DNA of 32,000 bases from the NCBI GenBank assembly GCA_045568075.1, contig JBJLBP010000001.1:330001-362000 (forward strand), written 5' to 3'. The position numbers were made by a program, and so were the translations under genes. This stretch comes from Candidatus Thalassarchaeaceae archaeon. Lineage in GTDB: Archaea > Thermoplasmatota > Poseidoniia > Poseidoniales > Thalassarchaeaceae. Every line of letters begins with the position of its first letter. Position 1 is the first letter of the stretch. Shown here piece by piece: positions 1 through 29,856 of the stretch. Below the pieces are notes generated by a model. That model had not been told where the DNA came from, searched no databases, and saw only the letters and a program-made list of their open reading frames with translations.

Positions 1-1482
1 CCAGCGCTGAACCCAGCGTCGATTTCAATCCCACTTGATGTCGAAATTCAATCGGACAGAGAGCGAAGACAACCCCGGAACACCGACGACGAAGGTTACC
101 TTCCCGAAGCAGCTCAACCTCACATTTGGGCCATCGAAAAGGACCAACTTTTGCGGACACATAGAGGTGCTGGACTACGACCGCGACTAGCCACTAGATG
201 GCCGGTCGTCGGTGGTCCAAACCGTGAGACCATCGATCCTCGCCCCCTCCGTCCTAAAGCAACAGGATCACAACCTTACAATTCTCGTCACGGCTATCTT
301 GAAGGAGCGGAGCAGTCAGTCGAAATTTGGTCTGCAAGTCGCCTCAAAGAGTGGGTCACCTGCCCGAGAAGGGGGTGGCTAAGCAGGGGATTGTCGGCCG
401 AGGAGGAAGAACGTCAGAGAGAGGACTTAGACTCACGAGCACAAGGAAATTTACTCCATGAAGTTCACCACCGGATCCTTGAACGCATCCTCGGAATTGA
501 ACAAGGAATCGAGCGCACAATTGACCAAATCCAGAAGGGGGAATTTCCTCAAAATATCACATCAAGCGGACTCTCGGACGCCGAATTACAATCGATTGCT
601 CTCGACGAATTATCCAACCTTGCACCTTGGTTGGAACGCACCGATGCGGTATCGAGCGCGAGGCTGAGATTGCTAACTGGATTCTCGCGCGCAGAGTGGT
701 TAGATTGGCTGAAGGATGGTTCTCCGATTAGTCCAACAGGACGAATCGGACGAATGGTTACTGCCGAATGTTCTCTAGAAGGAACGATTCCAATCGCGAC
801 GGAATGGGAGGCGCTGTCATTCAATTCGGCCGGGGTCGAGATTTCTATTCCTGCTAAGATCACAAGCCCTGGGAAGCAGAAATTGCCACCACTACGGCTT
901 CGTGGACAGATAGACAGAGTCGACTTGCTTCCATTCGACGCTGAAATGAAAGTCCTTGTCGACGAATCCGGCTCGAATAGCATCGCCCCATTGAGGCTCG
1001 CAGGCAGTGATTGGAAACCACGCCGTCTGATCATTATACGCGATATCAAAACAAGTGAGGGCGACCCTCTCAAACGCCACAAAGTAGGTTTGCTGGAGGA
1101 ATTACAACTCGCACTCTACGCCCGAGCTTGGGAGGTAGCCCATCCCGGAGACCTCGTTGTGGCCACAGGAATCAGCGTGATTGGCCACAACACCGACCAT
1201 TTACTCGAGGTTTCGAACCATCTGGCTACTAATTCAAAATCGAGGAACTTCGGCAATACGAAGAAGCAGCAGACACCCTCTCGATATCGCTTCCCAGACG
1301 AGGACGCAGAGAGCAAAAGCGATCCATTCCGGGCTTGGTTGGCTCAGAGACTATCCTCAGCCCTCGCGGCCGCAGCGAGAGCGGCCGAAGGTCGAGTTCA
1401 CCCAACACCGAGCAAGGATGCGTGCAAGTTCTGCCCGGTAACCTCGGTGTGCAATGTGAGACACAAGGGGGATGACCGATGA
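1..1482 (+). CDS. AddB/AdnA-like helicase-nuclease subunit, C-terminal PD-(D/E)XK nuclease domain with four-Cys (Fe-S type) staple; 5'-partial
   Basis: Frame 1 has no stop from nt 1, and the track ORF begins only at a TTG at 151, so the gene very likely continues upstream of the window. Motifs: WVTCPRRGW (Cys1, 361-363), HEVHHRIL, GQIDRVDLL, IIIRDIKTSEG (D...DxK), LQLALYARAW (QxxxY), CKFCPVTSVC (Cys2-4, 1423-1452). This is the AddB/Cas4-type nuclease layout. The stop overlaps the next start (ATGA at 1479-1482). Confidence 0.7.
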   Translation, partial: PALNPASISIPLDVEIQSDRERRQPRNTDDEGYLPEAAQPHIWAIEKDQLLRTHRGAGLRPRLATRWPVVGGPNRETIDPRPLRPKATGSQPYNSRHGYLEGAEQSVEIWSASRLKEWVTCPRRGWLSRGLSAEEEERQREDLDSRAQGNLLHEVHHRILERILGIEQGIERTIDQIQKGEFPQNITSSGLSDAELQSIALDELSNLAPWLERTDAVSSARLRLLTGFSRAEWLDWLKDGSPISPTGRIGRMVTAECSLEGTIPIATEWEALSFNSAGVEISIPAKITSPGKQKLPPLRLRGQIDRVDLLPFDAEMKVLVDESGSNSIAPLRLAGSDWKPRRLIIIRDIKTSEGDPLKRHKVGLLEELQLALYARAWEVAHPGDLVVATGISVIGHNTDHLLEVSNHLATNSKSRNFGNTKKQQTPSRYRFPDEDAESKSDPFRAWLAQRLSSALAAAARAAEGRVHPTPSKDACKFCPVTSVCNVRHKGDDR

Positions 1483-4400
1483 GCGAGGACTCAGATGAAA
1501 TCACGCTCAACACCGGCCAGCGGCTGGCGCTCAATCTCGATTCACATATTGTCATCGACGCAGGAGCGGGAACTGGAAAGACGATGACCATCGTCGAACG
1601 AGTAGTCCAACATTATCTCGAAGAAGATCAGCGGGCAACACGAATTCTCCCTCAGCCTGAGAGACCTCGCCGACTTGAAGGTGGCACAATTGTCTCACCA
1701 ATGGCGGAGCGCAAGGATTTGCGGGATTGGGGAGGATTGCTCCCTGGGGAGGTCGTTCTACTCACTTTCACCGTCGCAGCAGCCGATAAGATGCGTGACG
1801 AATTGAGGCAGAAAATCGCTCGTTTAGGAGTCGGTTCCTACGGTTCCTCGGGCGGCTATGATGCAGATCCACGAATCACCGACAAAGGCTTCCCCGAGCA
1901 GCTTCTGATGTTGGTTGAAGATGCTCCGATTGGCACAATCGACTCATTCTTCAATCAACTCGTTGCTCCATTCCGAAGTTTGCTGGGTGACGAATTAGGC
2001 GACGATGTGGTGACTGAATCTGATATTCTTCGCATCGTCGAACAGAGCATAAACACCCTCTGGCGCTTGCCCAATTCACCGAATCTCTACGGTGATGCGG
2101 TCGACGCAGGGATTCCAGTTGCAGATGTCGGTGCTGTCCTAGCAGCGCGCGACCGCATCTCTCAACATTATTCAGGCCGATACAAGGCAACGAAGATACT
2201 CAGTCCCTTGATATCGAAATCAATTTTCATTGCTGAAAGTGAACGGGGACTACTGGATGAAAATGAGAGAATTGACCCGGATCTTCTTCACGAGAGAATC
2301 ATGTCTTCGATTCGTACAGAAGATATCGACGAAGTTGTTTCAAATTTCCAATCAATCATTGAGGATTTCGTCGATGCCACTCGAACGAATTTGGCCGGCC
2401 TAACCCCTGGAGGTAAATGGGATCAAGGCACAAGAATCGATGTACTGGCAGCCCTTTCTGACTCAGGTCCTCCGACTGGAGATTGGCAACGTTTGATTTG
2501 GTTGAGCCGTGTATTACTTTGTATTACTGGCTCCCAATTACTACAGGATAAGGCGACTCTATTCCCTAGAAAGAAGTTGCCAAATAGTGACGAATGGAGC
2601 GCAGGAATTGCCTCGTATAGTGCTCTGAAGAATCCCTTCAAAGAGAACCTCAAGACCGTCTGGGAAGGATGCCACAATCGTGCCAAGGAAGTGATGAACT
2701 CACATGTGGGCAAACGCGTCCGTCACCACACTCGCCTCGCACTCATACTCGACCCACGAATTGGTTCAGGTATACCCCAAGGTGCGCCTCAGACGCTAGA
2801 ACATCTACCTGAGATATTGCCCGAGCGTCTGCCTCTTGGCCGACCACCGCAGGACTTTGCATTCGATTTGGCTTCTGAATCCCGCAACCTCGACGATATT
2901 CGTATTGTGCTGAAAGGATTGACGGGAATCGTCGATGTGCTGAAGGAGCGCGATGAGGTTCACGAGCATCGTGACATTGCATTGCTTGCGGGCGACTTAC
3001 TACTTGCTAACTGCCCGCGAGTCTGCCGTTTGTTCTATCCGCCAACTGTGATTGATGCACTCGATTCGTTAGATGAGATGACATGGCGTGACGATCATAT
3101 TCACCGAGCCTTCGCAGCCCTTGAAGCACTCGAAGAGAAGCCCAGCATGGCAGGTGAGGCAGCGGGACGGCTCAGCGAAATCAGAGCAGATCTTGAGCGC
3201 CGCCACTCTGATTTACGCAGTATCCGGCGACGTTATCGAGCCTTCATCATCGATGAGGCTCAGGACAATTCACCCCTACAATGGCGTATGCTATCTCGAC
3301 TCTGGGGGCCTAGGGAAATACGCTCAGGAGAGGTAGAGGAACCGGATACCGATTGGCAGCCAACAGTCTGTTATGTCGGCGATATGAAGCAGTCGATTTA
3401 CGCATTCCGTCAAGCCGAAGTTGCCGGATTCCGCCAATTCGCTGAGAGGTTGCGTGCCATCAATCGCCATGAATTTGACAACTTGAGTGAACTTACCCGT
3501 GAGCCAGTTCTACGGAGTGGAATCCAGAGTCGAGACCCGCGATTCTCTCATGAACGTCAGATTGTACGGGCTTCGCAATTGTTGGCAACCAACGCGCGCA
3601 ATCTCACTGGATGGGTGCATTTCGAGACGACCGAGGGAGCATCTTCCCTCACTCCAGAAGAGGTAGATGCTCGCAGAGATGGCCAAATTTCACTGACTAC
3701 GAATTACCGCACCGATGGTGATCTATTGGAGGTGATGAATGAGTGGTGGGAGGACCTATTCGGTGATCGCCATCGCTTCTTTCCCAACGCAGATTACTAC
3801 GCCTTGCCACAGCGTTTGCTTGCTTCCCCGAAGAAGGAGCACCGCCGTGGCGTCCTCGAATGGATTTGTCCAGTCAGAGACGATGGTGACGAGGATCCTC
3901 CTTCGGAATTGACCACGTACATCGATCCATTCGGCCCCGGTAAGCCGGACTCCTTTGAGCGCCAAGCGATGATGATTGCTGAGCGAATTCAGACATTGAC
4001 AGCGTGTAGAAACACCCGTGTCCGACACGCTTCCGGCGAATGGCTGGTGATCCCTTCAGCTGAAGAACCGATTCGGTACAGTGATGTCATGATTTTGATG
4101 GCAAGTCGCTCCAAGATTCGCGATGCTCTGATACGGCATCTCCGAGACCACAATATTCCAGTTCAAGCCGATCGTGAGGGCGGCTTGATGCGGCGACCTG
4201 TGGTAGCCGAACTCGATGGATTGCTACAATTCATCGCGCGACCGAGTAGTCGCTTCGCAGCAGCCTGGGTCGCGCGCTCCTCACTCATCGGAATGGATGA
4301 TGCAAGACTGCAAGCCTTCCTCTCGGCGGGAAGGAATGAGAATTTACTCGCGCGCTTGCTTGATTATTCAGCTTCAGAAAGGCAGCAGGCTTTGGTCCAA

Positions 4401-6527
4401 CGCTGGATTAATCTCTCAGCCGCTGGACGTCTTGTCGATTTGCTCGATGAAACCATCGATCAGTCAGACCTTCTCGTCGCTCATTGTGAAGAAGGAGCAA
4501 TCCAAGATGTCGAGAGATTCGTCAACGAAGTACGTTTGATTTCGAACTCCGTCGGCGGCGACCCTATCGTCATCGCCGACCGCCTACGTGACCTGCGGGA
4601 ACAGGACGGTCGCGCGCTTGAGGGCAAGAATACCCCTGAGCGCGACGCAGTCCAACTGATGTCTATCCACAATTCTAAGGGACTGGAGGCGAAGGTAGTT
4701 TTCGTCACTGATTTGTTTAGTAAAAAGCAGGTGACTCTGACCAATGAGGATCAATCAAGACTCATCGTCAACCCTGAATTCTTCGCGGGTCATCCAGCAC
4801 CTTGGCCTGGCAATAAGTACCCAGCATCCGCGATGTGGCAACACTCTCGAAGAATCGCTCTCAAACGGAAAAATGCTGAAGCTCGTCGTCTCCTATACGT
4901 CGCTGCAACGCGTGTTGAACAACACCTCGTCATCGTTGGCTCACCCGAGAAAACGGAGTGGATTGATGAGTCCGGATTGAAAATCGACTGGAAGTATTCC
5001 GAATCTCAAACAACGCTTGGCCAGATGTGGGCCGAATCGCTCAGGCAGGCTTCGCATCGTCGCGGCGAGACTTCGAATCAATCTCCATGGGTAGAAGCAG
5101 CGGACGATGGTCAGCCTCATCCACTCAACTCAGGAGCAGGGGCTGACCGATTCCTCAACCCCGGAAGTCTGCAACAAGATGGATGGCTACGTCCCCCCAA
5201 ATCGGGTCACCCAAAGCCTGGCATGAGAATTTACCATCATCCAGATTGCTTCCGAAGTGATGATTCGAAGGCGAATGTGCTTCACTCACCGCTCGTTCGT
5301 CAAACAATGCTCGATCAAGCCGTAAACGATTCTCGCTTAGCCCCGGTCGAATTGACTACGAGGATATCGACCGGTGCTCGCATCCGCCTCGCGCCGCACC
5401 GTCTCTCGAAGATTGATGCCTGCCCGCGCAGACATTGGTTCGAGACGCGCGGCGGCCTCAAACCTGACCCGATTTCTTCCACAGACCAACACGATGAGGA
5501 GGACGAACAAGATCCTCGTGCATCGAGGCTGATGGATGAGTCTGACGGCCCAACATTAGCCGAAACGGAGGGTGCTGCGAATCTACCTTCGCCGACCCAA
5601 TTGGGTCTCATAGTTCACAGGGTACTTGAGGTCGGCATAGGTAATCCTGGGCCAGATGGTGAGCAGCCTTCGATGGCCTTACCTGAAATTTGGTCGAATC
5701 CAGTTGAGAGCAGGCTGAGTGATAGCAACCTGCTCGCTGAGGTGTTCGCTGAGCTGATGCCACGCGGTGTCGACGAGGAGAAGACCGAGCAGGTAGTTTC
5801 GACGATGCTGCAACGCATCGAAGAGGGCCTCGTCGGACGTTTAACGCGCGCAGAAGTCATCGATGGCGAGCGAGTCGAAGGCCTGCGTACAGAATACCCA
5901 TTCACCATCTCCAATCCAGTTTCGTTCGAAACGGTTCCGAGAACCCGCTGGACTCCAGATGGAATCGAGCAATTGGCGGGCATCGAGAGAGCTAGTATCG
6001 ACATGGATGGTTCCATCGATCTGGCTCTCTGCTCATCGCACGAAGATGGGACTTCATCTATCAGGCCAATCGACCTGAAGACCGAACAGGCTGCGAGCAT
6101 CCTCGATGATTCGGGGTCACTTCTCGACGCTCTCGGTAACCACGCCACCGAACCTGCTAACGATGCTGAAATCGAGATGCTGCGCCACCACCGACTACAA
6201 TTGGCTCTGTACCACAGAGCGTTGGAGATGATGGAAGCGACGCGTCCTGAGGGGCAGCGTCGAAGGGTCGAGCGGCCAGCGATTCTTGTCGGTGTCACCG
6301 GCCGTCTCGTCATCTATCCGGTCGAGATGTTCGAACAAGCCCAAGCCCAGATAGACGATATTCTCGCAACGGCGGCGCGAATGGAACTCGCAACAGAACT
6401 TCCACTCGCCGATTTCCAGCGCCTCCCTCAATCGAAAGCCCACGTTTGCGCGATGTGCCCATTCAGCATGGGGGACTTGCCGATTTGCGGACCGCTGAGT
6501 GAAACCGAAGCGAGTATCGAGACCTGA
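1479..6527 (+). CDS. UvrD/AddA/RecB-like superfamily-1 helicase fused to a C-terminal PD-(D/E)XK nuclease with four-Cys cluster (1682 aa)
   Basis: Helicase motifs in order: I DAGAGTGKT (1563-1583), Ia LLTFTVAAADKMRDEL, Ib IGTIDSFFNQL, II FIIDEAQDNSP (DEAQD from 3252), III YVGDMKQSIYAFRQAE, IV LTTNYRTDG, V SIHNSKGLEAKVVFV, VI RRLLYVAATRVEQHLVIVG. Nuclease motifs: ACPRRHW (5421-5423), LIVHRVLE, GSIDLAL, IRPIDLKTEQ (DxK), LQLALYHRAL (QxxxY), CAMCPFSMGDLPIC (6447-6488). Confidence 0.85.
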   Translation: MSEDSDEITLNTGQRLALNLDSHIVIDAGAGTGKTMTIVERVVQHYLEEDQRATRILPQPERPRRLEGGTIVSPMAERKDLRDWGGLLPGEVVLLTFTVAAADKMRDELRQKIARLGVGSYGSSGGYDADPRITDKGFPEQLLMLVEDAPIGTIDSFFNQLVAPFRSLLGDELGDDVVTESDILRIVEQSINTLWRLPNSPNLYGDAVDAGIPVADVGAVLAARDRISQHYSGRYKATKILSPLISKSIFIAESERGLLDENERIDPDLLHERIMSSIRTEDIDEVVSNFQSIIEDFVDATRTNLAGLTPGGKWDQGTRIDVLAALSDSGPPTGDWQRLIWLSRVLLCITGSQLLQDKATLFPRKKLPNSDEWSAGIASYSALKNPFKENLKTVWEGCHNRAKEVMNSHVGKRVRHHTRLALILDPRIGSGIPQGAPQTLEHLPEILPERLPLGRPPQDFAFDLASESRNLDDIRIVLKGLTGIVDVLKERDEVHEHRDIALLAGDLLLANCPRVCRLFYPPTVIDALDSLDEMTWRDDHIHRAFAALEALEEKPSMAGEAAGRLSEIRADLERRHSDLRSIRRRYRAFIIDEAQDNSPLQWRMLSRLWGPREIRSGEVEEPDTDWQPTVCYVGDMKQSIYAFRQAEVAGFRQFAERLRAINRHEFDNLSELTREPVLRSGIQSRDPRFSHERQIVRASQLLATNARNLTGWVHFETTEGASSLTPEEVDARRDGQISLTTNYRTDGDLLEVMNEWWEDLFGDRHRFFPNADYYALPQRLLASPKKEHRRGVLEWICPVRDDGDEDPPSELTTYIDPFGPGKPDSFERQAMMIAERIQTLTACRNTRVRHASGEWLVIPSAEEPIRYSDVMILMASRSKIRDALIRHLRDHNIPVQADREGGLMRRPVVAELDGLLQFIARPSSRFAAAWVARSSLIGMDDARLQAFLSAGRNENLLARLLDYSASERQQALVQRWINLSAAGRLVDLLDETIDQSDLLVAHCEEGAIQDVERFVNEVRLISNSVGGDPIVIADRLRDLREQDGRALEGKNTPERDAVQLMSIHNSKGLEAKVVFVTDLFSKKQVTLTNEDQSRLIVNPEFFAGHPAPWPGNKYPASAMWQHSRRIALKRKNAEARRLLYVAATRVEQHLVIVGSPEKTEWIDESGLKIDWKYSESQTTLGQMWAESLRQASHRRGETSNQSPWVEAADDGQPHPLNSGAGADRFLNPGSLQQDGWLRPPKSGHPKPGMRIYHHPDCFRSDDSKANVLHSPLVRQTMLDQAVNDSRLAPVELTTRISTGARIRLAPHRLSKIDACPRRHWFETRGGLKPDPISSTDQHDEEDEQDPRASRLMDESDGPTLAETEGAANLPSPTQLGLIVHRVLEVGIGNPGPDGEQPSMALPEIWSNPVESRLSDSNLLAEVFAELMPRGVDEEKTEQVVSTMLQRIEEGLVGRLTRAEVIDGERVEGLRTEYPFTISNPVSFETVPRTRWTPDGIEQLAGIERASIDMDGSIDLALCSSHEDGTSSIRPIDLKTEQAASILDDSGSLLDALGNHATEPANDAEIEMLRHHRLQLALYHRALEMMEATRPEGQRRRVERPAILVGVTGRLVIYPVEMFEQAQAQIDDILATAARMELATELPLADFQRLPQSKAHVCAMCPFSMGDLPICGPLSETEASIET

Positions 6528-8110: not shown

Positions 8111-8731
8111 ATGAGCGAAGAAGACTCCACTGTCTCCCCCGATCTACGAATCCGCCAATTGGAAGAGGATCTCCTCAAGGAGAAGGACCGCCTTGAGAAG
8201 CTCTACGCGGGTTACACAGCCCTCAAGGATGCGACCGATGAGAAGGACGCAACTATCGATGTCCTTGAGCGCCAGATGATCGACAAAGAGATCGAAATGG
8301 AGGGCATGCAGGAGCTCTTCTCAGAGAAGGATGTAAGAATCCGTGACCTCGAACTCGACGGTGCAAAGAACTCCCAGCGAGTCAAGCACCTCGAGCCAGA
8401 ACTCCAGAAGATGGAGGAGATGTATACTCGTGAATCAGCTCGTCTTGGCCGTGTTTTCGAGGTTGCTGAAGACCTCGATGAGGCACTACGCGTCGCCAAG
8501 GGCCAACTGAACGCTCGCGATGATTGGTATGCTCAACACATGAAACTCTTCGAGGATCTCAGTACAGCGATTCAGACCCGCTACGATATGATCGATTCCG
8601 CCATCGAGGCGATTCGCGAGCAGGAACTGAAGCAAGCAACCTTCCGCGAGCGCATGGATGAGGCTCTAGAAGCAGCAGGCGATGAGTTGACTGCTGATGA
8701 CGAGCCTGAGGAAGAAGTCGACGACGAGTGA
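8111..8731 (+). CDS. Hypothetical acidic coiled-coil protein (206 aa)
   Basis: GAGGTG Shine-Dalgarno 6 nt upstream of the ATG. The sequence is heptad-like and E/K/D/L-rich throughout, with an acidic tail (DDEPEEEVDDE). I recognise no family. Confidence 0.6.
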   Translation: MSEEDSTVSPDLRIRQLEEDLLKEKDRLEKLYAGYTALKDATDEKDATIDVLERQMIDKEIEMEGMQELFSEKDVRIRDLELDGAKNSQRVKHLEPELQKMEEMYTRESARLGRVFEVAEDLDEALRVAKGQLNARDDWYAQHMKLFEDLSTAIQTRYDMIDSAIEAIREQELKQATFRERMDEALEAAGDELTADDEPEEEVDDE

Positions 8732-12858: not shown

Positions 12859-12868
12859 GGTGATTGTG

Positions 12869-14533
12869 ATGGATTCGATACTCTCAACCTTAGCAGTTTT
12901 CTGGGCTTGCGCCCTCATTTTCTACCTCCTCGTCCATCGTGGACTGTGGATTTTCTCTGACGTTGCCCGTGGCATGGGGATGTTCATGCTCGAGAAGGCT
13001 CTCGGCCCTGGAATCGAATTAGTCGAGGGCCGTTCAGGCTCTGCAGCAAGAGCATGGATTGTTCAGTCAGCCCTGTGGCTGATGCTCGGTGGGCTATTCA
13101 CCTTCGAGGGTTTTTGGCTTGCTCACGACCCTACTGCTCTGCACTCACTCAGTGCTTGGGGATATGATCCGACCGCCGAGACACTGGCTGCTACCGGCAA
13201 GGCCGTGACTGCCTTCGGTGGAGTCACGATGGCAATTATCGGCTGCGGTCTGCACATTCTCCCCAAGTTGCTAGGAACTGATTTGGCGAGTGAGCGTAAC
13301 GGTACTCTCGTCTCCTTCCTTTACTCAGGGTCAGTTGCAGTGATGATAATCGGCTCGCACGACCCTGTAATTCTGGGAGTCAAGGTTCTCATTATCGGCA
13401 CAGGCATCCATATTCTGGCTATTACTGCAATCGTAATCAACCAACTACTGACACTCGCCAATCGTTCGGGTTCAATCTCTTTACCGGCTTGGTTGATTCT
13501 CTTCGGATTGATGTCTGAATCGTTCAACCTGATCGCAGGAATTGCCACCGGTGCTATCACCGATGGCGATGGCCAGTGGCTGATGTATAGAATTCAGTCT
13601 GGTGGATTCTTCTTCCTCTCAACCGCTGGTGTAGTACTCTATGCTACGAGTGTGGCGAGCGGCAATGCTCTGTGGTCACGTTCACTAGTCGGTGCCACTC
13701 TATTCGGCGGCTTGTTCACTCTACAGCCTCTGGGATCTCGTGAAGGCTCGCTAGTTGCGGACCTCTTCGGTCTCGATGCTGGCGAGATGGCAATGGGTCA
13801 GAGCGACATGGTCGTCTCAAGCTTCTTGCTGGCGTTAGCTGCAATTCCAGTGATTGCCTTCTGCGCTAATGCAATGTTGACGATGCGCGGTGGTAATTCT
13901 TCTGGCGCCAACCCAAATATGGCAGGCTTGGCTGAAATGAATCTCGGTGTTATAGCGATGATTCCTGTCTTCGTTGGGGCCTTGTTTGTTCAGACAGATT
14001 CGGTCTCCGGGACCGATGCTCTAACTGGTATTGCTGGAACCATCGATGAAATGGGTCGTTGGGCTGTCTTAGTGCCACTGAACTTCGGTGCTGCTCTAGC
14101 CCTGTATCCGTCGATTACTGGTCGCCAGTTAGCTTCGGCTAGCCGCGCCCGAACCGCTTTCTGGCTGATGTCGAGCGGCGTGCTACTGGGATTGATGGTG
14201 ACTCTGACATCGAATGCCATCGATATTGCTCTACTCGATGCTGGCGTTCTTGATCCGTCGAGCCTGGCTCACGACTTGGCTGTGGCTGGCTCGGTAATAT
14301 TCTACTTCGTAGTAATCGCAATGATTCTGCACTGCATGAACATGGTCAGCGGACTATTCCGTGGGCAAATCGTTGGAGAGGGTGATGAGGGCGCTTCGAG
14401 CATCCAGGTGGATAGTTACAATCTCGCTTCGCCAACGACGGTGGCTCGAATCTTGGGCTCTGGCGCTGGAATGGACACTGTCATCGTGCCGGTCGGTGAA
14501 TCTGATGAGGCTGGTTCGGCGACCGACCTTTGA
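12869..14533 (+). CDS. Polytopic integral membrane protein, ~12-13 TM, unknown function
   Basis: About 13 hydrophobic segments. GAGGTGA (12857-12863) lies 5 nt before ATG 12869, indicating translational coupling to the small upstream membrane protein. No family is confidently recognised. Confidence 0.65.
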   Translation: MDSILSTLAVFWACALIFYLLVHRGLWIFSDVARGMGMFMLEKALGPGIELVEGRSGSAARAWIVQSALWLMLGGLFTFEGFWLAHDPTALHSLSAWGYDPTAETLAATGKAVTAFGGVTMAIIGCGLHILPKLLGTDLASERNGTLVSFLYSGSVAVMIIGSHDPVILGVKVLIIGTGIHILAITAIVINQLLTLANRSGSISLPAWLILFGLMSESFNLIAGIATGAITDGDGQWLMYRIQSGGFFFLSTAGVVLYATSVASGNALWSRSLVGATLFGGLFTLQPLGSREGSLVADLFGLDAGEMAMGQSDMVVSSFLLALAAIPVIAFCANAMLTMRGGNSSGANPNMAGLAEMNLGVIAMIPVFVGALFVQTDSVSGTDALTGIAGTIDEMGRWAVLVPLNFGAALALYPSITGRQLASASRARTAFWLMSSGVLLGLMVTLTSNAIDIALLDAGVLDPSSLAHDLAVAGSVIFYFVVIAMILHCMNMVSGLFRGQIVGEGDEGASSIQVDSYNLASPTTVARILGSGAGMDTVIVPVGESDEAGSATDL

Positions 14534-15892: not shown

Positions 15893-16576
15893 TCACAGAT
15901 CGACGATCGGCTCGAGCACGACCTCGTAAGTAACAGCCGTCCAAGTGATATCGTAATCCTCGTTACTATCGACAAAGCCTCCGATTCCCGGCGGGGCACT
16001 GATATCAGCAGTAATCGTCAGTGCCCAAGTTCCACGTCCAAATCCGCCATCGTTCCACTCGGCGCGAATATCACCCTCGCTGACATCCTCAATCTGATAT
16101 GACTCACCGGTGTAATTGCTCGTCACATCCCAACCCATAGTGAATCCTGAATTGCCTCCACCACAAGTTCCAGAGTCACTCTGATCATCAAACTCGCCGT
16201 CTACTCCAGACACATCGCTAGTACCATCGACTGAATCTGAGAATCCCGGTCCTGGATCGTCATTATCGTTGCAAGTCACAAAGACTTCGACATAACCGAT
16301 GAAAAATTCACTCTCGACGTCGAAGAATGAGTCGTGAGAGTCGCCGTCGCCGAGGTTCACCGATTCACTCAATTCGATGGTAACCTCGTTGAACGTAACG
16401 ACCCATCCTCCACGAGCCCCTCCACCTGATGAGGAAGCCAAGAGGTCATCATCGATGAGGCTGGGCATGACTTGGAAGTAGAGTGGAAAGACAATCATGA
16501 AGGCGATTGAAATGCCGAGCATAGCCTGCTTACGCGGGGTGTCGATCAGACTCTCGAAGTCCATCTTGCTCGCCAT
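15893..16576 (-). CDS. Hypothetical N-terminally anchored, highly acidic (D/E/G/S-rich) probably extracytoplasmic protein
   Basis: A single N-terminal TM/signal-anchor (LGISIAFMIVFPLYFQVM) is followed by a beta-rich acidic sequence. ATG 16576 (MASKMDF...) is preferred over TTG 16600. Confidence 0.55.
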   Translation of the reverse strand: MASKMDFESLIDTPRKQAMLGISIAFMIVFPLYFQVMPSLIDDDLLASSSGGGARGGWVVTFNEVTIELSESVNLGDGDSHDSFFDVESEFFIGYVEVFVTCNDNDDPGPGFSDSVDGTSDVSGVDGEFDDQSDSGTCGGGNSGFTMGWDVTSNYTGESYQIEDVSEGDIRAEWNDGGFGRGTWALTITADISAPPGIGGFVDSNEDYDITWTAVTYEVVLEPIVDL

Positions 16577-16640
16577 TGGGTACCTGCAATAGCCTATCAA
16601 GAAGCCTACGGGCTTGAGTCAGAAGCGCTCGAAAGCGGAC

Positions 16641-17117
16641 TCATTCTTCTTCCGTGAGCGCTTCTGTCCATTGCTTGACGTCGATTCCTTCGCGTCCAAA
16701 GTGGACGCGAGATCGTCGGTATTCGGGTAATAGGAAGCCGATGATCGACCTTTCCCCGAATGTCCATTGCCATGGGCATCGGGGAAGTCGAGAACTCCAT
16801 TCATCGAGAATAGATTTCCACTCTTCTCCTTCGAGATGAGGTGGGATTTCAATCGAGATCCAAGTGATTCTGCCAGCTGAGCCGGGTACATTCGACCAAG
16901 TTCGCAGGCTCAGTCCTCGAGCCGAGCCTTCGAGTACCTCGATACCGAGGACTCGTGTCATCCGTGAAAGTGGCATAATGATGGCGAAACGATGCACCAT
17001 GCGAGACTCTTCCAAGCGACGCATGGACCATCCGCGCGACTCTCCGACTAATCTCAGAGCGCGGATGGCATCGGTCGGTGTCACCGAGACAGGAATCTCA
17101 AGAAGACGCCCGACCAT
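16641..17117 (-). CDS. Hypothetical protein (158 aa)
   Basis: Longest ORF at this locus, co-directional with the ribosomal-protein array, with globular-looking composition. No motif recognised and no obvious SD. Confidence 0.45.
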   Translation of the reverse strand: MVGRLLEIPVSVTPTDAIRALRLVGESRGWSMRRLEESRMVHRFAIIMPLSRMTRVLGIEVLEGSARGLSLRTWSNVPGSAGRITWISIEIPPHLEGEEWKSILDEWSSRLPRCPWQWTFGERSIIGFLLPEYRRSRVHFGREGIDVKQWTEALTEEE

Positions 17118-19341: not shown

Positions 19342-19620
19342 TCACTCAAAATGTTCGTTGAATCTCCCTTCTTCCATTGCTTGTAGAGCGGCCTTGGGCT
19401 CCATGCCCTCAACCTTGACGCGCATTGCCACACAGGTACCCATGATCTCACGCGAGCGCGCGTAAAGAGATGAACCGGTCAAGCGGTCCTTCTGCTTCTC
19501 AGCGACCTGCTTGACTTGCTCCATTGAGAGGTTCTCAGTGGAGGCATCCCAGCTGCCGTTGCACTTCTTCAGACCGAGGGTCTGTATGATCACGTGAGGA
19601 GTCTCGTTTCGCGCTGACAT
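19342..19620 (-). CDS. rpl11: 50S ribosomal protein uL11, C-terminal (rRNA-binding) domain only; the N-terminal domain is absent from this locus
   Basis: ETPHVIIQTLGLKK...NLSMEQVKQVAEKQKDRL...IMGTCVAMRVKVEG aligns by eye to the hinge plus C-terminal domain of bacterial and archaeal L11 (KTPPASFLLKKAAGIEKGS...GTAKSMGIEV). The ~65-aa N-terminal domain (GGKAxxGPPLGPALG...) is not encoded in any frame of the 86-nt spacer up to the spt5 stop. Confidence 0.8.
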   Translation of the reverse strand: MSARNETPHVIIQTLGLKKCNGSWDASTENLSMEQVKQVAEKQKDRLTGSSLYARSREIMGTCVAMRVKVEGMEPKAALQAMEEGRFNEHFE

Positions 19621-19706: not shown

Positions 19707-20606
19707 TCATTCGACGCGCTGAGTGACTCTTACTTGGTCAGCGCGCACGGTCAGAGCGACTGGAACAGCTGCATCGAAGAGCTCGACCGTGACCTCTTCT
19801 TTGGATTCTGTAACGCGGATGACGCGGGCGGATTGGCCCTTGAAAGCGCCACCGCTGATCTCGATGATACAACCTTCTTCGATGCCGGCGGTAGCCGCCT
19901 TTGGCTCGAGATAGGAAAGTGTGTTTTCGAGAGGTGACACGCCTGGAAGCACCTTACGGCAATTCTTCAGGCGGGTCGTGGTCATACCGACCATTCCGAT
20001 TAGCTTCTCGACGTGGTGCACGGCGGAGGCTTCGACGAAGATGTAGCCACGCACGTGGCCAGGGACTAGGACTCCGAAGATCTCGTCTTGGATATCCTTG
20101 AGTGACCCGGTTCCTGAGAGGCGGGCGCGAATCTCCTTTGCGACGTTCTGTTCCTGACCGATGCTAGTCTTGAGGATGTAGAGGAAAGAAGCGACGTCTC
20201 CATACATTGCGCCAATCTGAGGAATGGCATAGCGAACTGCCCCCGTCCCCTCGGACGTATCGGATTTGTAATTCTCGATATTGGCCGGGTCGACCCATTC
20301 GAAATTCTTGTAGATGGTTCGAGATGAGACCTCCTCGCTGTCAGAGATGAACAGTAGAGGGGTAACGTCGTTCAGGCGGTTGCCGAAAGCGAGACCGCGA
20401 GCAGGACCGGAGCGAACGTGCTCGAGTGACTCAGCAGGAATGCCGGTGCACTCGGTTACGCGAGCGGTTACGGCATCGATATCTTCGGGATTGCCGGCAC
20501 CATAGATACCATCCCAAGCGCCGGGGAAGTCAGCGACCTCATCGGCTCGCTGCATGATTAGGACCTTCTCGCCGTGGCGAACATAGACTACGAATGCGTC
20601 AGACAT
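19707..20606 (-). CDS. spt5: Transcription elongation factor Spt5 (NGN+KOW) with a ~145-aa N-terminal Nudix-fold-like extension
   Basis: C-terminal half: FLYILKTSIGQEQNVAKEI...GYIFVEA (NGN) and GCIIEISGGAFKGQSARVIRV (KOW). N-terminal half: FVVYVRHGEKVLIMQRADEVADFPGAWDGIYGAGNPEDIDAVTARVTECTGIP is Nudix-like. GAGGTGAGAAAAATG places the start at 20606 (MSDAFVVY...). There is no stop between the two halves. Confidence 0.8.
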   Translation of the reverse strand: MSDAFVVYVRHGEKVLIMQRADEVADFPGAWDGIYGAGNPEDIDAVTARVTECTGIPAESLEHVRSGPARGLAFGNRLNDVTPLLFISDSEEVSSRTIYKNFEWVDPANIENYKSDTSEGTGAVRYAIPQIGAMYGDVASFLYILKTSIGQEQNVAKEIRARLSGTGSLKDIQDEIFGVLVPGHVRGYIFVEASAVHHVEKLIGMVGMTTTRLKNCRKVLPGVSPLENTLSYLEPKAATAGIEEGCIIEISGGAFKGQSARVIRVTESKEEVTVELFDAAVPVALTVRADQVRVTQRVE

Positions 20607-20616
20607 TTTTCTCACC

Positions 20617-20883
20617 TCAGGAGTTCGTAAGCCATGAGAAGAAGTCAGGCAGGACATTGTCCATCAACCAGAGCATACCAAATCCGATAGCACCGAGAAT
20701 GAACATTCCGATACCACAGACGATGACAGTCTGGCGGAATTCCTGCTTGGATGGCTTGCGAGCCATCTTCAGGATACGTGCCATCGATCCAGTCTGAACG
20801 CGGCGTACGCGCTCCTCGATATCATCCTGCAGTCTCTGTGCAGTTTGCTCGATGGCCCCGATGTCTGAGTTCTCCATAGCCAT
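20617..20883 (-). CDS. secE: Protein translocase subunit SecE / Sec61-gamma
   Basis: C-terminal KMARKPSKQEFRQTVIVCGIGMFILGAIGFGMLWL (basic segment plus a single TM) and the conserved position upstream of spt5. GAGGGAGAG precedes ATG 20883. The stop TGA is embedded in the spt5 SD. Confidence 0.8.
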   Translation of the reverse strand: MAMENSDIGAIEQTAQRLQDDIEERVRRVQTGSMARILKMARKPSKQEFRQTVIVCGIGMFILGAIGFGMLWLMDNVLPDFFSWLTNS

Positions 20884-20923
20884 TGCTCTCCCTCTACAGC
20901 GACCCGGCGACAAACCACCCCTC

Positions 20924-27590: not shown

Positions 27591-28223
27591 TCAATCTATA
27601 TCCAGTATGTGACCCATTCTCTGGCGCTTGGTATCGAGATATCTCTGATTAATAGGAGAAATTCCTGTTATGTGCGCCTTGCGTTGAACCACTTGAATTC
27701 CATTGTCTGCTAATCCCTTGACCTTGAGAGGATTGTTTGTCATGAGTCTGACTTTGTTAATTCCAATCTCTTTGAGCATTGTCGCAGCTATCGAGTATTC
27801 GCGCGCATCCGCAGGAAGACCTAGTGCCAAGTTAGCATCCAGAGTGTCGTAGCCCAAATCTTGCAGAGCGTAGGCTTGGATCTTACACTTGAGTCCGATT
27901 CCCCTGCCTTCCTGTCTTAGGTAAGCAATAGCTCCAGAACCCTCTTCCTGAATTCTTTTCATGGCGGCTTGCAGTTGAGGACCGCAATCACACTTCATCG
28001 ATCCGAAAGCATCTCCAGTTAGGCACTCGGAATGAATCCTCACCAAGGGAGATGAATTACTGTTCATTTCGCCTGTGTACAGCAGAGAATGTTCATTTCC
28101 ATCTTCATCGACTGTGACTCGGATTCTGAAATTTCCATATTCAGTCGGCAAGAAAGAATCTGCCTCAATTTCATCGATTCTATCTTTCTTTAGTTGAATC
28201 GTCATGTTCCGCGGTTTGTCCAT
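27591..28223 (-). CDS. ribA: GTP cyclohydrolase II (bacterial-type RibA)
   Basis: VRIHSECLTGDAFGSMKCDCGPQLQAAMKRIQEEGSGAIAYLRQEGRGIGLKCKIQAYALQDLGYDTLDANLALGLPADAREY...RLMTNNPLKV is near-collinear with E. coli RibA (zinc Cys triad present). The start is ATG 28223 or 28205. Confidence 0.9.
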   Translation of the reverse strand: MDKPRNMTIQLKKDRIDEIEADSFLPTEYGNFRIRVTVDEDGNEHSLLYTGEMNSNSSPLVRIHSECLTGDAFGSMKCDCGPQLQAAMKRIQEEGSGAIAYLRQEGRGIGLKCKIQAYALQDLGYDTLDANLALGLPADAREYSIAATMLKEIGINKVRLMTNNPLKVKGLADNGIQVVQRKAHITGISPINQRYLDTKRQRMGHILDID

Positions 28224-28270
28224 TAGGTTATCAATGACTGTTTGTGTTCCTAATGGAAGCAAACACCCGA

Positions 28271-28278
28271 TTATATGC
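28271..28278. promoter_or_regulatory. Near-palindromic TATA element (TTATAT / ATATAA) in the ribA-phr divergent intergenic region
   Basis: It is centred ~26 nt upstream of the phr ATG (28300), the spacing expected for a leaderless archaeal mRNA. On the other strand ATATAA lies ~50 nt upstream of the first ribA ATG. Confidence 0.4.
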
Positions 28279-28299
28279 AGAACTAGTATTGTCGCACAC

Positions 28300-29856
28300 A
28301 TGCACGAGACTAGAGAGGTGGGTTCAGGATCTCCTCACAGTCGTGTGCGTGAATTAAATCATCTACCAATAAATCCGGATGGTGAGTTTGTTCTATACTG
28401 GATGACAGCCTGTCGCAGATTCCATCATAATGCTGCTCTCGAGCGTTGTATACAGATAGCTGTGGAGATGGGGAAGCCAGTACTAGTAGTAGAGCCAGCA
28501 TCTATCAGGCACAAATGGTCAAGCGATAGGATTCTGACTTTCTTGGCACAGGGTATGGTAGACAATCTAGCAATCTTTGAATTCCATGGCATATCGTATC
28601 TACCATGGATCGAGACTCACAAGGAGCCTGGAGATGGCCTACTTCGTAATCTGTCGAGAAAATCATGTGCTGTTGTAGTAGATGACTATCCAACATATCT
28701 TCCAAAGTTTGTAATGGATCGGGCTAGAGAGACATGTTCTGTTCGTTTGGAAGCTGTAGATTCTAACGGTATTATCCCAATGAGTTGGGCTGAAGATGCG
28801 CACCTGACTGCATATTCATACCGTAAGCATGTCCAAAGGAGCCTTGTTGATGCTATGTTCAGCATCCCAAAATACAATCCCATGGATTCCATCAAAGAGA
28901 ATCTCATGGTCAATCCGTCATATCTCGAGTCACTTTTCTCTTCGATAGGAGTTGAAATTACTCCTTACGAATGGTTGTGGAGGTTGGCTCAGGGGGGCGA
29001 GATCGGCGTCGAGGCTTGCTCTCCTCTGGATATTGACCATAGTGTAGGTCCAGTAGAATCAATGCGCGGAGGGAGGTTTGAGGCGCTGATTAGATTCGAG
29101 AAATTTTTGCAAGGAGGATTAGATCGCTACGATACTGGCAGAAATGATACTGATGATCCTGCGACTAGTGGCCTATCACCCTGGATTCACTTCGGACACA
29201 TATCGAGTTTCGAGATAGTTCTAGCAGTATTAGACAAGGCGAATTGGGATATTGGAATGATTTCATTTGAGGATACTGGAAGGGGTTCTCGAAGCGGTTG
29301 GTGGGGGCTTCCTGAGGCATATGAGGGGTTTCTTGATCAAATCATCACTTGGCGAGAACTGGGATTCAATTTCGCACACTACAGAGAGGACCACAATAGC
29401 ATCCATTCCATACCTGCTTGGGCCAAGAAGTCGCTCAATTACCATGCTAATGATGAGCGTCTAGCATACACATTCGAAGAGATTGAGCAGGCCATGACCG
29501 ATGACGAGGTTTGGAATGCTGCACAGCGCCAGTTACTCCGTACTGGACATATTCACAACTACCTTAGGATGGTCTGGGGGAAGAGGATTCTTGAATGGGC
29601 TCCAAACCCCGAAACAGCCGCTGAATGGATGATAATAATCAATGATAAATGGGCATTGGACGGGAGAGATCCAAATTCCTACACGGGTATTTTCTGGGTT
29701 CTGGGTCGACATGATAGAGCCTGGGGTCCTGAGAGACCTATTTTTGGGAAGGTTAGGTACATGTCTTCCAGTAATACGAAAAAGAAATTGAGGCTTGACA
29801 ATTATCTGGCCAAATGGGCTGAGGACGCCCCTATTCCAAAGTCCACGATTAGGTGA
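28300..29856 (+). CDS. phr: Class II CPD photolyase (deoxyribodipyrimidine photo-lyase)
   Basis: TSGLSPWIHFGHIS, ITWRELGFNF, HNYLRMVWGKRILEW, DGRDPNSYTGIFWVLGRHDRAWGPERPIFGKVRYMSS are class II photolyase hallmarks (compare Methanosarcina class II enzyme). ATG 28300 is preferred over the track start at 28204. Confidence 0.9.
   Translation: MHETREVGSGSPHSRVRELNHLPINPDGEFVLYWMTACRRFHHNAALERCIQIAVEMGKPVLVVEPASIRHKWSSDRILTFLAQGMVDNLAIFEFHGISYLPWIETHKEPGDGLLRNLSRKSCAVVVDDYPTYLPKFVMDRARETCSVRLEAVDSNGIIPMSWAEDAHLTAYSYRKHVQRSLVDAMFSIPKYNPMDSIKENLMVNPSYLESLFSSIGVEITPYEWLWRLAQGGEIGVEACSPLDIDHSVGPVESMRGGRFEALIRFEKFLQGGLDRYDTGRNDTDDPATSGLSPWIHFGHISSFEIVLAVLDKANWDIGMISFEDTGRGSRSGWWGLPEAYEGFLDQIITWRELGFNFAHYREDHNSIHSIPAWAKKSLNYHANDERLAYTFEEIEQAMTDDEVWNAAQRQLLRTGHIHNYLRMVWGKRILEWAPNPETAAEWMIIINDKWALDGRDPNSYTGIFWVLGRHDRAWGPERPIFGKVRYMSSSNTKKKLRLDNYLAKWAEDAPIPKSTIR

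Follow-up and report, generated by a model that had tools for sequence, protein, structure and literature searches.

Archaeal Spt5 is usually regarded as a minimal protein in which an NGN domain is followed by a KOW domain, and the NGN domain docks onto the clamp of RNA polymerase. In eukaryotic Spt5, the region ahead of the NGN domain is acidic and disordered. In a different setting, the ion channel TRPM2 carries NUDT9-H, a Nudix domain that is enzymatically dead and acts as a sensor. Here we describe a gene that joins these themes. It lies in a 32,000 nt stretch of DNA (the window) from a Candidatus Thalassarchaeaceae archaeon (assembly GCA_045568075.1, contig JBJLBP010000001.1, positions 330,001 to 362,000), and is a genuine spt5 gene of this Thalassarchaeaceae (Marine Group II b, MGIIb) archaeon. 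Ahead of an ordinary Spt5, its product carries a domain that we assign to the Nudix superfamily and in which canonical catalysis is very unlikely.

In its NGN-KOW part of about 150 residues and in its position between secE and the gene for L11, the new protein resembles characterized archaeal Spt5 proteins such as those of Pyrococcus furiosus (Spt4/5, 3p8b) and Thermococcus kodakarensis (9bct). However, in the known chains the NGN domain comes first (the matches begin at residues 2-9), whereas the fused protein adds about 140 residues that make up an independent Nudix-fold domain and a linker. With eukaryotic Spt5, and with bacterial NusG variants that have N-terminal extensions or inserted domains, it shares an extra acidic segment before the NGN domain. 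The eukaryotic segment differs in being disordered, whereas that of the fused Spt5 is predicted to be a folded domain derived from an enzyme. Literature searches on Spt5 or NusG with Nudix domains, on Poseidoniales and on N-terminal extensions of archaeal Spt5 did not retrieve a description of this fusion, and a 2026 domain-centred survey of elongation factors, in which about 40 archaeal proteomes were sampled, does not describe a Nudix-Spt5 architecture. These searches agree with a preliminary description of this DNA, made from its letters alone, in which the architecture had been called undescribed. The gene and its parts are as follows, with positions numbered from the first letter of the window.

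19707 to 20606, reverse strand: whole Nudix-Spt5 gene, 299 codons plus stop, from the listing of open reading frames (ORFs) and direct reading.
20271 to 20606, reverse strand: Nudix-fold domain, predicted to be catalytically degenerate, residues 1-112, from profile search, hhalign and AlphaFold/Foldseek.
20439 to 20501, reverse strand: degenerate Nudix box, G36-I56, GAGNPEDIDAVTARVTECTGI, aligned to the G-x5-E-x7-[KR]E[IV]xEETG[IL] pattern of canonical relatives.
20208 to 20270, reverse strand: variable and probably flexible linker, residues 113-133, with an identity of 0.44 and low model confidence (below 50, on the scale given below) at residues 116-127.
20187 to 20207, reverse strand: junction MYGDVAS, residues 134-140, highly conserved (identity 0.955).
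19932 to 20186, reverse strand: Spt5 NGN domain, residues about 141-225, from Pfam PF03439 and alignment to PDB entries 3p8b, 9bct and 4zn1.
19710 to 19931, reverse strand: Spt5 linker and KOW domain, residues about 226-299, from TIGR00405, Pfam KOW and PDB alignments.

The preliminary description had read the N-terminal extension as a Nudix fold, and profile comparisons bear this out. A profile built from fused sequences only (A3), run against a set of 1.84 billion representative proteins, returned 297 matches. Beyond the family itself, these include proteins with a Pfam NUDIX domain above threshold (E values of 7e-14 to 1e-6), namely stand-alone proteins of about 135 amino acids (aa), fusions of 410-480 aa that combine NUDIX with an IF-2B domain, and others. 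When the fused family was compared by hhalign with 20 canonical stand-alone relatives, the two aligned with 99.5% probability (E 2e-22) over 124 columns at 28% identity. The nearest non-fused relatives, found by the A3 profile at E values of 1e-13 to 1e-8, belong to an uncharacterized and mostly archaeal Nudix subfamily that shows weak likeness, below the NCBIfam cut-offs, to enzymes of the NudI, NudB and NudG types. By these matches, the fused domain is a descendant of this subfamily, an example of which is Haloferax volcanii HVO_1934 (listed in PMC8576121).

Searches of smaller collections gave fainter signals. PF00293 was matched below threshold by six of eight fused N-terminal domains, drawn from three lineages (best E 3e-4), and the N-terminal domain from the window, scanned alone against Pfam, had no match. 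Against NCBIfam, the same domain gave weak matches to type-1 isopentenyl diphosphate (IPP) isomerase (IDI) and to NudB, with E values of about 0.02-0.09. The fused-only profile retrieved mostly Nudix enzymes from the PDB, at marginal significance (best E 0.013). The decisive evidence for homology is the search of 1.84 billion proteins together with the hhalign comparison, not the family scans or the PDB profile. Automatic labels are inconsistent: two N-terminal domain fragments in public collections, P0357 and P0374, carry a precomputed PF00293 match, and JGI labels others (P0369, P0402) ‘isopentenyldiphosphate isomerase’.

The domain was also modelled with AlphaFold, using an alignment of 36 sequences (A4). 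Residues 1 to about 115 were predicted with block-mean values of 72-96 on the predicted local distance difference test (pLDDT) and form a strand-rich sandwich with a helix at residues 43-54, while a run on the single sequence gave a mean pLDDT of 35. The structure search that the preliminary description had proposed as a check returned the Nudix fold. Foldseek matches in the PDB comprise NudI, E. coli RppH, diadenosine tetraphosphate (Ap4A) hydrolases, BdRppH, MutT, IDI and the C-terminal domain of MUTYH; those to NudI, RppH and Ap4A hydrolases have E values of 1e-7 to 1e-5 and target TM-scores of 0.54-0.73. The C-terminal half of the model retrieved Spt5 structures. Because alignment A4 included canonical Nudix sequences, the modelled fold corroborates the homology and does not stand as independent proof of it, whereas the profile search and hhalign statistics owe nothing to the structural model. 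Taken together, homology and predicted fold identify residues 1-112 as a true domain of the Nudix superfamily.

The remainder of the protein (residues 141-297) is an archaeal Spt5 with NGN and KOW domains. PF03439 (Spt5-NGN) matches residues 142-206 at 7.9e-12 with 45.4 bits (cut-off 22.4), and the NCBIfam equivalog TIGR00405 matches residues 143-297, the full length of the model, with 108.9 bits (cut-off 69.95). Pfam KOW falls just under its cut-off of 22.3 at residues 249-275 (E 0.001, 19.3 bits), and the PDB alignments cover the KOW domain and extend to residue 297. Spt5 chains of 147-152 aa from Pyrococcus, Thermococcus and Methanocaldococcus align end-to-end with this part, at E values from 8e-25 (3p8b) to 7e-21. 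The gene also sits where spt5 is expected, with ftsZ and secE upstream and the genes for L11, L1, L10 and L12 downstream, as identified by Pfam. By these tests the protein carries every testable defining feature of the Spt5 family and is assigned to it. Since the C-terminal part is an ordinary Spt5 at the universal spt5 position, the extra N-terminal residues, about 140 in number, are real; a large extension ahead of the NGN domain had been noted in the preliminary description, and the peptides quoted there (VVYVRHGEKVLIMQRA, FPGAWDG, AVTARVTECTGIP and FLYILKTSIGQEQNVA) are all present.

The fusion is also widespread. A scan of GTDB with one genome per species found 160 genomes that encode a relative, and the 80 best loci among them, from independent species genomes produced by many studies and assemblers, were read. 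The fused ORF runs uninterrupted to its stop codon in 78 of the 80 and is still open at the contig end in the remaining two. Seventy-two of the 78 complete ORFs encode 288-300 aa; the other six are longer, with an uncertain start. The closest loci, 91% identical, belong to Thalassarchaeaceae (MGIIb), and this assigns the window to the same family. When residues 1-140 served as the query, only sequences of Poseidoniales (Marine Group II) were matched, and wherever a match was long enough it continued through MYGDVAS[FY]LYILKTSIGQEQNVA into the NGN domain. A search with the full-length protein found 608 homologues, of which all 120 listed are 288-300 aa; where named, they bear the label ‘transcription elongation factor Spt5’ or ‘NusG’, and PF03439 is their only precomputed domain.

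Two divergent lineages carry the same extension. One is represented by P0055, a fused Spt5 of 306 aa from a cluster of 444 members in marine samples, whose cluster labels read Thermoplasmatota or ‘archaeon’. The other is P0063, a fused Spt5 of 385 aa encoded in GCA_002505935.1 (L082:3796-5158 and L083:3162-4524), in which the Nudix domain is preceded by additional sequence, namely an acidic stretch and a C2H2-like zinc finger (CSWCGEKLASARELADHKLLH). At both of these loci, a separate ORF of 82 aa with two C2H2-like fingers overlaps the start of the 385-aa Spt5. The gene order of the spt5 cluster is shared with L082 and L083, except that secE is not adjacent there.

Conservation is uneven along the protein. 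Among 76 species, mean pairwise identity is 0.71 in the Nudix core (with 29 invariant columns), 0.80 in the NGN domain and 0.84 in the KOW domain, and it falls to 0.44 in the linker (residues 113-133) and rises to 0.955 at the MYGDVAS junction. The ratio of non-synonymous to synonymous substitution rates (dN/dS), computed pairwise by NG86 with dS near saturation and hence only roughly, comes to about 0.085 in the Nudix part, compared with about 0.017 in the NGN-KOW part. A value of 0.085 indicates that the Nudix part is translated and selected, and by this measure purifying selection acts on the domain across the order. Within the linker, an 11-residue insertion resembling KSDTSEGTGAVR (20235-20270, reverse strand, residues about 113-124) occurs in the 299-aa forms and not in the 288-aa forms; it is the least conserved stretch of the protein and the one modelled with the lowest confidence.

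The gene begins with an ATG at the complement of 20604-20606 and ends with a stop codon at 19707-19709, and the signal for its translation is as follows.

20612 to 20618, reverse strand: Shine-Dalgarno sequence GAGGTGA of spt5, read directly, overlapping the secE stop codon TGA (20617-20619).

The continuous frame of 299 codons, with a strong ribosome-binding site directly after secE, is therefore present in the sequence as the preliminary description had stated. In the segment 20604-20619 (reverse strand), which reads TGAGGTGAGAAAAATG, the secE stop codon is embedded in the spt5 Shine-Dalgarno sequence, an arrangement that suggests translational coupling of spt5 to secE. An alternative frame of 316 codons, opened by an ATG further upstream, would overlap with secE and is without this ribosome-binding site. 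Among 65 related genomes, a motif of the TGAGGTG type precedes the annotated spt5 start in 62, while a Shine-Dalgarno-like motif precedes the internal Met134 in only three.

These observations bear on whether the fusion is meaningful at all. The extension might have been an artefact of annotation or assembly, two genes that an indel had merged, or a leader upstream of a short NGN-KOW product that starts at Met134, and two facts could be read in this way: at least 90% of the sequences have Met134, which stands where a minimal Spt5 would start, and many database entries are fragmentary or frame-shifted. We regard such explanations as extremely improbable. The indel-made stop codon dividing two genes, which the preliminary description had named as a way for its proposal to fail, is not seen: the frame is uninterrupted in 78 of 80 loci, open in the two that are cut by contig ends, and intact in the two divergent lineages as well, so that the proposed check of orthologous genes found the same extension throughout. 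The dN/dS value of the Nudix part and the conservation of the Shine-Dalgarno sequence at the first ATG, rather than at Met134, likewise weaken the earlier concern about internal initiation, and on these three grounds an artefact, a two-gene arrangement and an untranslated leader were each rejected. Short contigs and adaptor read-through would account for the fragmentary entries. Met134 is plausibly the ancestral Spt5 start, kept after an upstream Nudix gene became fused, because it lies seven residues before the first strand of the NGN domain, where minimal Spt5 begins.

Many public fragments (P0014, P0018-P0023 and P0046) begin or end with the peptides LSLIHI, CLLYTSPSPRD/CLLYTSDAADE, SYTHLTLPTILLV or MCIRDR, which we take to be translated sequencing adaptors. 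The odd lengths of these fragments would follow from their adaptor-derived ends. If so, read-through in public metagenome assemblies creates false protein termini.

The catalytic apparatus of the Nudix domain has been altered extensively. In the closest canonical relatives (numbered as in P0088), Glu53, Glu57 and Glu105 are invariant and Glu56 is nearly so. Their counterparts in the fused proteins are the following.

Glu53 corresponds to Arg49 in the window protein, which is invariant across all three fused lineages.
Glu56 corresponds to Glu52, kept in the window protein, whereas the P0055, P0063 and P0070 lineages have Gln or Asp.
Glu57 corresponds to Cys53 in the window protein; the fused family as a whole has C, V, T, A, S or I here.
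Glu105 corresponds to Lys100, which is invariant in MGIIb; T, A or S is found elsewhere.

The region equivalent to REUxEE thus reads ARVTEC in the window and DRVAQS or ERVSQI in sister lineages, and the preliminary description was right that several catalytic positions are replaced. It had also called the box one residue short. A shortening does exist, but it amounts to 2-3 residues and lies in the loop before the helix, while the helix itself has its full length. The fused domain has neither the sequence motif that defines the Nudix hydrolases nor their downstream catalytic glutamate. Because no glutamate of the box is retained family-wide and two metal ligands are replaced by basic residues, canonical metal-dependent pyrophosphohydrolysis by this domain is very unlikely, and, as the defining motif fails, the protein should not be filed as a Nudix hydrolase.

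A different set of residues has been preserved. Invariant in all fused lineages are F5, R10, E13, L16, R20, W31-D32-G33, G36, V46, R49, T54-G55, G67 and R70, and most of these positions lie in or around the former substrate loop and Nudix box. Invariant residues specific to the fused clade are R49 and R70-G71, alongside W31-D32-G33. The domain is acidic overall, with an isoelectric point (pI) of 4.4 and a net charge of about -10. General binding of RNA or DNA by the domain was judged unlikely from this pI.

With catalysis lost and selection maintained, the most likely role for the domain is that of a binding module, and we lean, with some reserve, towards a non-catalytic module for a ligand or partner that is tethered at the RNA polymerase clamp. 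The ancestral enzyme would have stopped canonical hydrolysis of pyrophosphate bonds and been kept for binding, in parallel with other dead Nudix domains that serve in regulation. The variable linker of about 20-30 residues could serve as a flexible tether between the Nudix domain and the NGN-KOW part, and because the NGN domain binds the clamp, its docking would keep the Nudix domain beside the elongation complex. The most likely use would be to bind a phosphorylated, nucleotide-type ligand without turnover, or alternatively a protein partner, and the bound signal might be coupled to the effect of Spt5 on processivity, pausing or termination. The pocket keeps its framework, while Arg49, Arg70 and Lys100, which are specific to the fused clade, take the place of metal ligands; this suggests that such a ligand is bound directly and free of metal. 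A more specific and distinctly less probable version is that the dead pocket binds an alarmone, ADP-ribose or NAD, a dinucleoside polyphosphate, or the non-canonical 5′ cap or 5′-triphosphate of nascent RNA, and that its occupancy alters the hold of Spt5 on the clamp. If this were true, a universal elongation factor would itself act as a switch, gated by a metabolite or a cap, that controls processivity, pausing or termination genome-wide.

Other roles must be set against the tethered binding module. The domain might be purely structural or serve for protein docking without any small-molecule ligand, for example by stabilizing the NGN domain, replacing or supplementing Spt4, touching the clamp or stalk of RNA polymerase, or forming a bridge to the ribosome or to other factors. 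The loss of catalytic residues would fit such a role, as would the pI of 4.4, since acidity is common among protein-interaction modules; the near-invariant junction beside the NGN domain hints at a fixed spatial relation, and the acidic and zinc-finger segments gained at the N-terminus in the P0063 lineage suggest a platform that accretes interaction modules. We nevertheless consider this unlikely, although a serious contender, because the residues that are invariant family-wide cluster within and near what were the Nudix box and the substrate loop, and not obviously on a new surface, and the variable linker, modelled with low confidence, argues against rigid packing. It is more doubtful still that the domain remains an enzyme with a non-canonical active site, engaged in co-transcriptional processing of 5′ ends (pyrophosphate, NAD or Np4 caps) or in the sanitizing or cleavage of nucleotides. 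The Nudix fold is kept, the RNA pyrophosphohydrolases RppH and BdRppH are among the top structural matches, Glu52 of the box and the invariant D22, D26 and D32 persist in MGIIb, and some Nudix members with atypical boxes are active, such as IDI, which is among the weak matches. However, three of the four glutamates of the closest canonical relatives have been replaced, two of them by basic residues; the P0055, P0063 and P0070 lineages have Gln or Asp instead of Glu52, which leaves no box glutamate family-wide; the loop that bears the glutamate of the G-x5-E element is 2-3 residues shorter; and the acidic surface is unfavourable to RNA binding. Residual hydrolysis of the decapping type, which the preliminary description had offered beside nucleotide or 5′-end binding, is disfavoured by the missing glutamates.

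The binding-module proposal itself faces several counterweights. The Nudix shape of the model is not fully independent of the homology, for the reason given above, and the NGN part and the arrangement of the domains were modelled poorly (pLDDT below 50 and a predicted template modelling score, pTM, of 0.50). The dN/dS values are rough. A sensor function is argued by analogy, and the acidity of the domain (pI 4.4) points to no particular ligand. Finally, Arg49 and Lys100 could merely neutralize the acidic residues that remain, stabilizing a metal-free fold.

Whatever its precise role, the domain would be a permanently attached, enzyme-derived addition to Spt5 throughout an order of abundant, uncultured planktonic archaea, and such breadth, together with purifying selection, implies that this lineage has a level of control or coupling of its own at the elongating polymerase. 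It also appears to offer a natural example of a Nudix enzyme that became a pseudoenzyme through charge reversal of its metal ligands. Annotation pipelines record plain ‘Spt5’ and miss the Nudix domain, and marker-gene pipelines that use TIGR00405 take in the longer proteins unnoticed.

The neighbours of spt5 in the window include the following two genes.

20617 to 20913, reverse strand: secE, upstream neighbour (Pfam SecE 4e-6).
19342 to 19620, reverse strand: uL11 gene, downstream neighbour, 92 aa, with the C-terminal RNA-binding domain only (Pfam PF00298 only).

The uL11 product aligns to residues 73-159 of Pyrococcus L11, so that the factor-binding N-terminal domain is not in this gene, and the gap of 86 nt between the spt5 stop codon and uL11 is too short to hold its coding sequence. 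A uL11 gene of this 92-aa form is also present in six MGIIb loci that were inspected, as well as in the P0063 lineage. Elsewhere in the window, two adjacent large genes (151-6527, forward strand) resemble a bacterial helicase-nuclease of the AddAB type, which is unusual in an archaeal genome; they encode a 443-aa PD-(D/E)XK protein and a 1682-aa UvrD helicase with a C-terminal PD-(D/E)XK nuclease domain. For five further ORFs of the window, of 557, 550, 206, 235 and 158 aa, Pfam gave no match at E ≤ 1e-5 (for those of 235 and 158 aa, at E ≤ 1e-3); these ORFs are located at 12860-14533, 28204-29856 and 8111-8731 on the forward strand and at 15893-17117 on the reverse strand.

Compared with known Nudix systems, the fused domain is closest to the archaeal subfamily from which it appears to derive, with 28% identity over 124 profile columns, and this subfamily also occurs fused to the N-terminus of another protein. 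There, however, the partner is a domain like IF-2B/ribose-1,5-bisphosphate isomerase (eIF-2B) rather than Spt5, and the subfamily keeps both the [KR]E[IV]xEETG[IL] box and the downstream glutamate of a WE[HN] motif, whereas the Spt5 domain does not. With the canonical hydrolases (MutT, NudI, Ap4A hydrolase and RppH; PF00293) it shares the predicted fold, the G..G...TG[IL] framework and the helix, but it is without the conserved REUxEE glutamates, has Lys100 in place of Glu, has a shorter loop and, in the window protein, does not reach any Pfam threshold. Enzymes of the RppH/Dcp2 type need an intact box and a basic RNA-binding surface, and the fused domain, with its pI of 4.4, has neither; it resembles RppH in structure only as far as Nudix proteins in general do.

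The nearest functional parallels are found among regulators. The NrtR family and AraR regulators also attach to a transcription protein a Nudix-derived domain whose catalytic box is incomplete, and Bacteroides AraR (5bs6) is among the profile matches (E 4.7e-4). In those regulators, the partner is a winged-helix domain and the targets are specific promoters, whereas in the fused Spt5 the partner is NGN-KOW, and Pfam and NCBIfam scans found no winged helix-turn-helix. Because this domain is missing, the protein is not a regulator of the NrtR type, although by analogy its Nudix domain may work in the NrtR manner, binding an effector and thereby controlling the module to which it is attached. NUDT9-H of TRPM2 offers a likeness of another kind, as a dead-Nudix sensor, and differs in having an ion channel as its partner. 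Since the partner of the fused domain is a general elongation factor, any effect that it exerts would be polymerase-wide.

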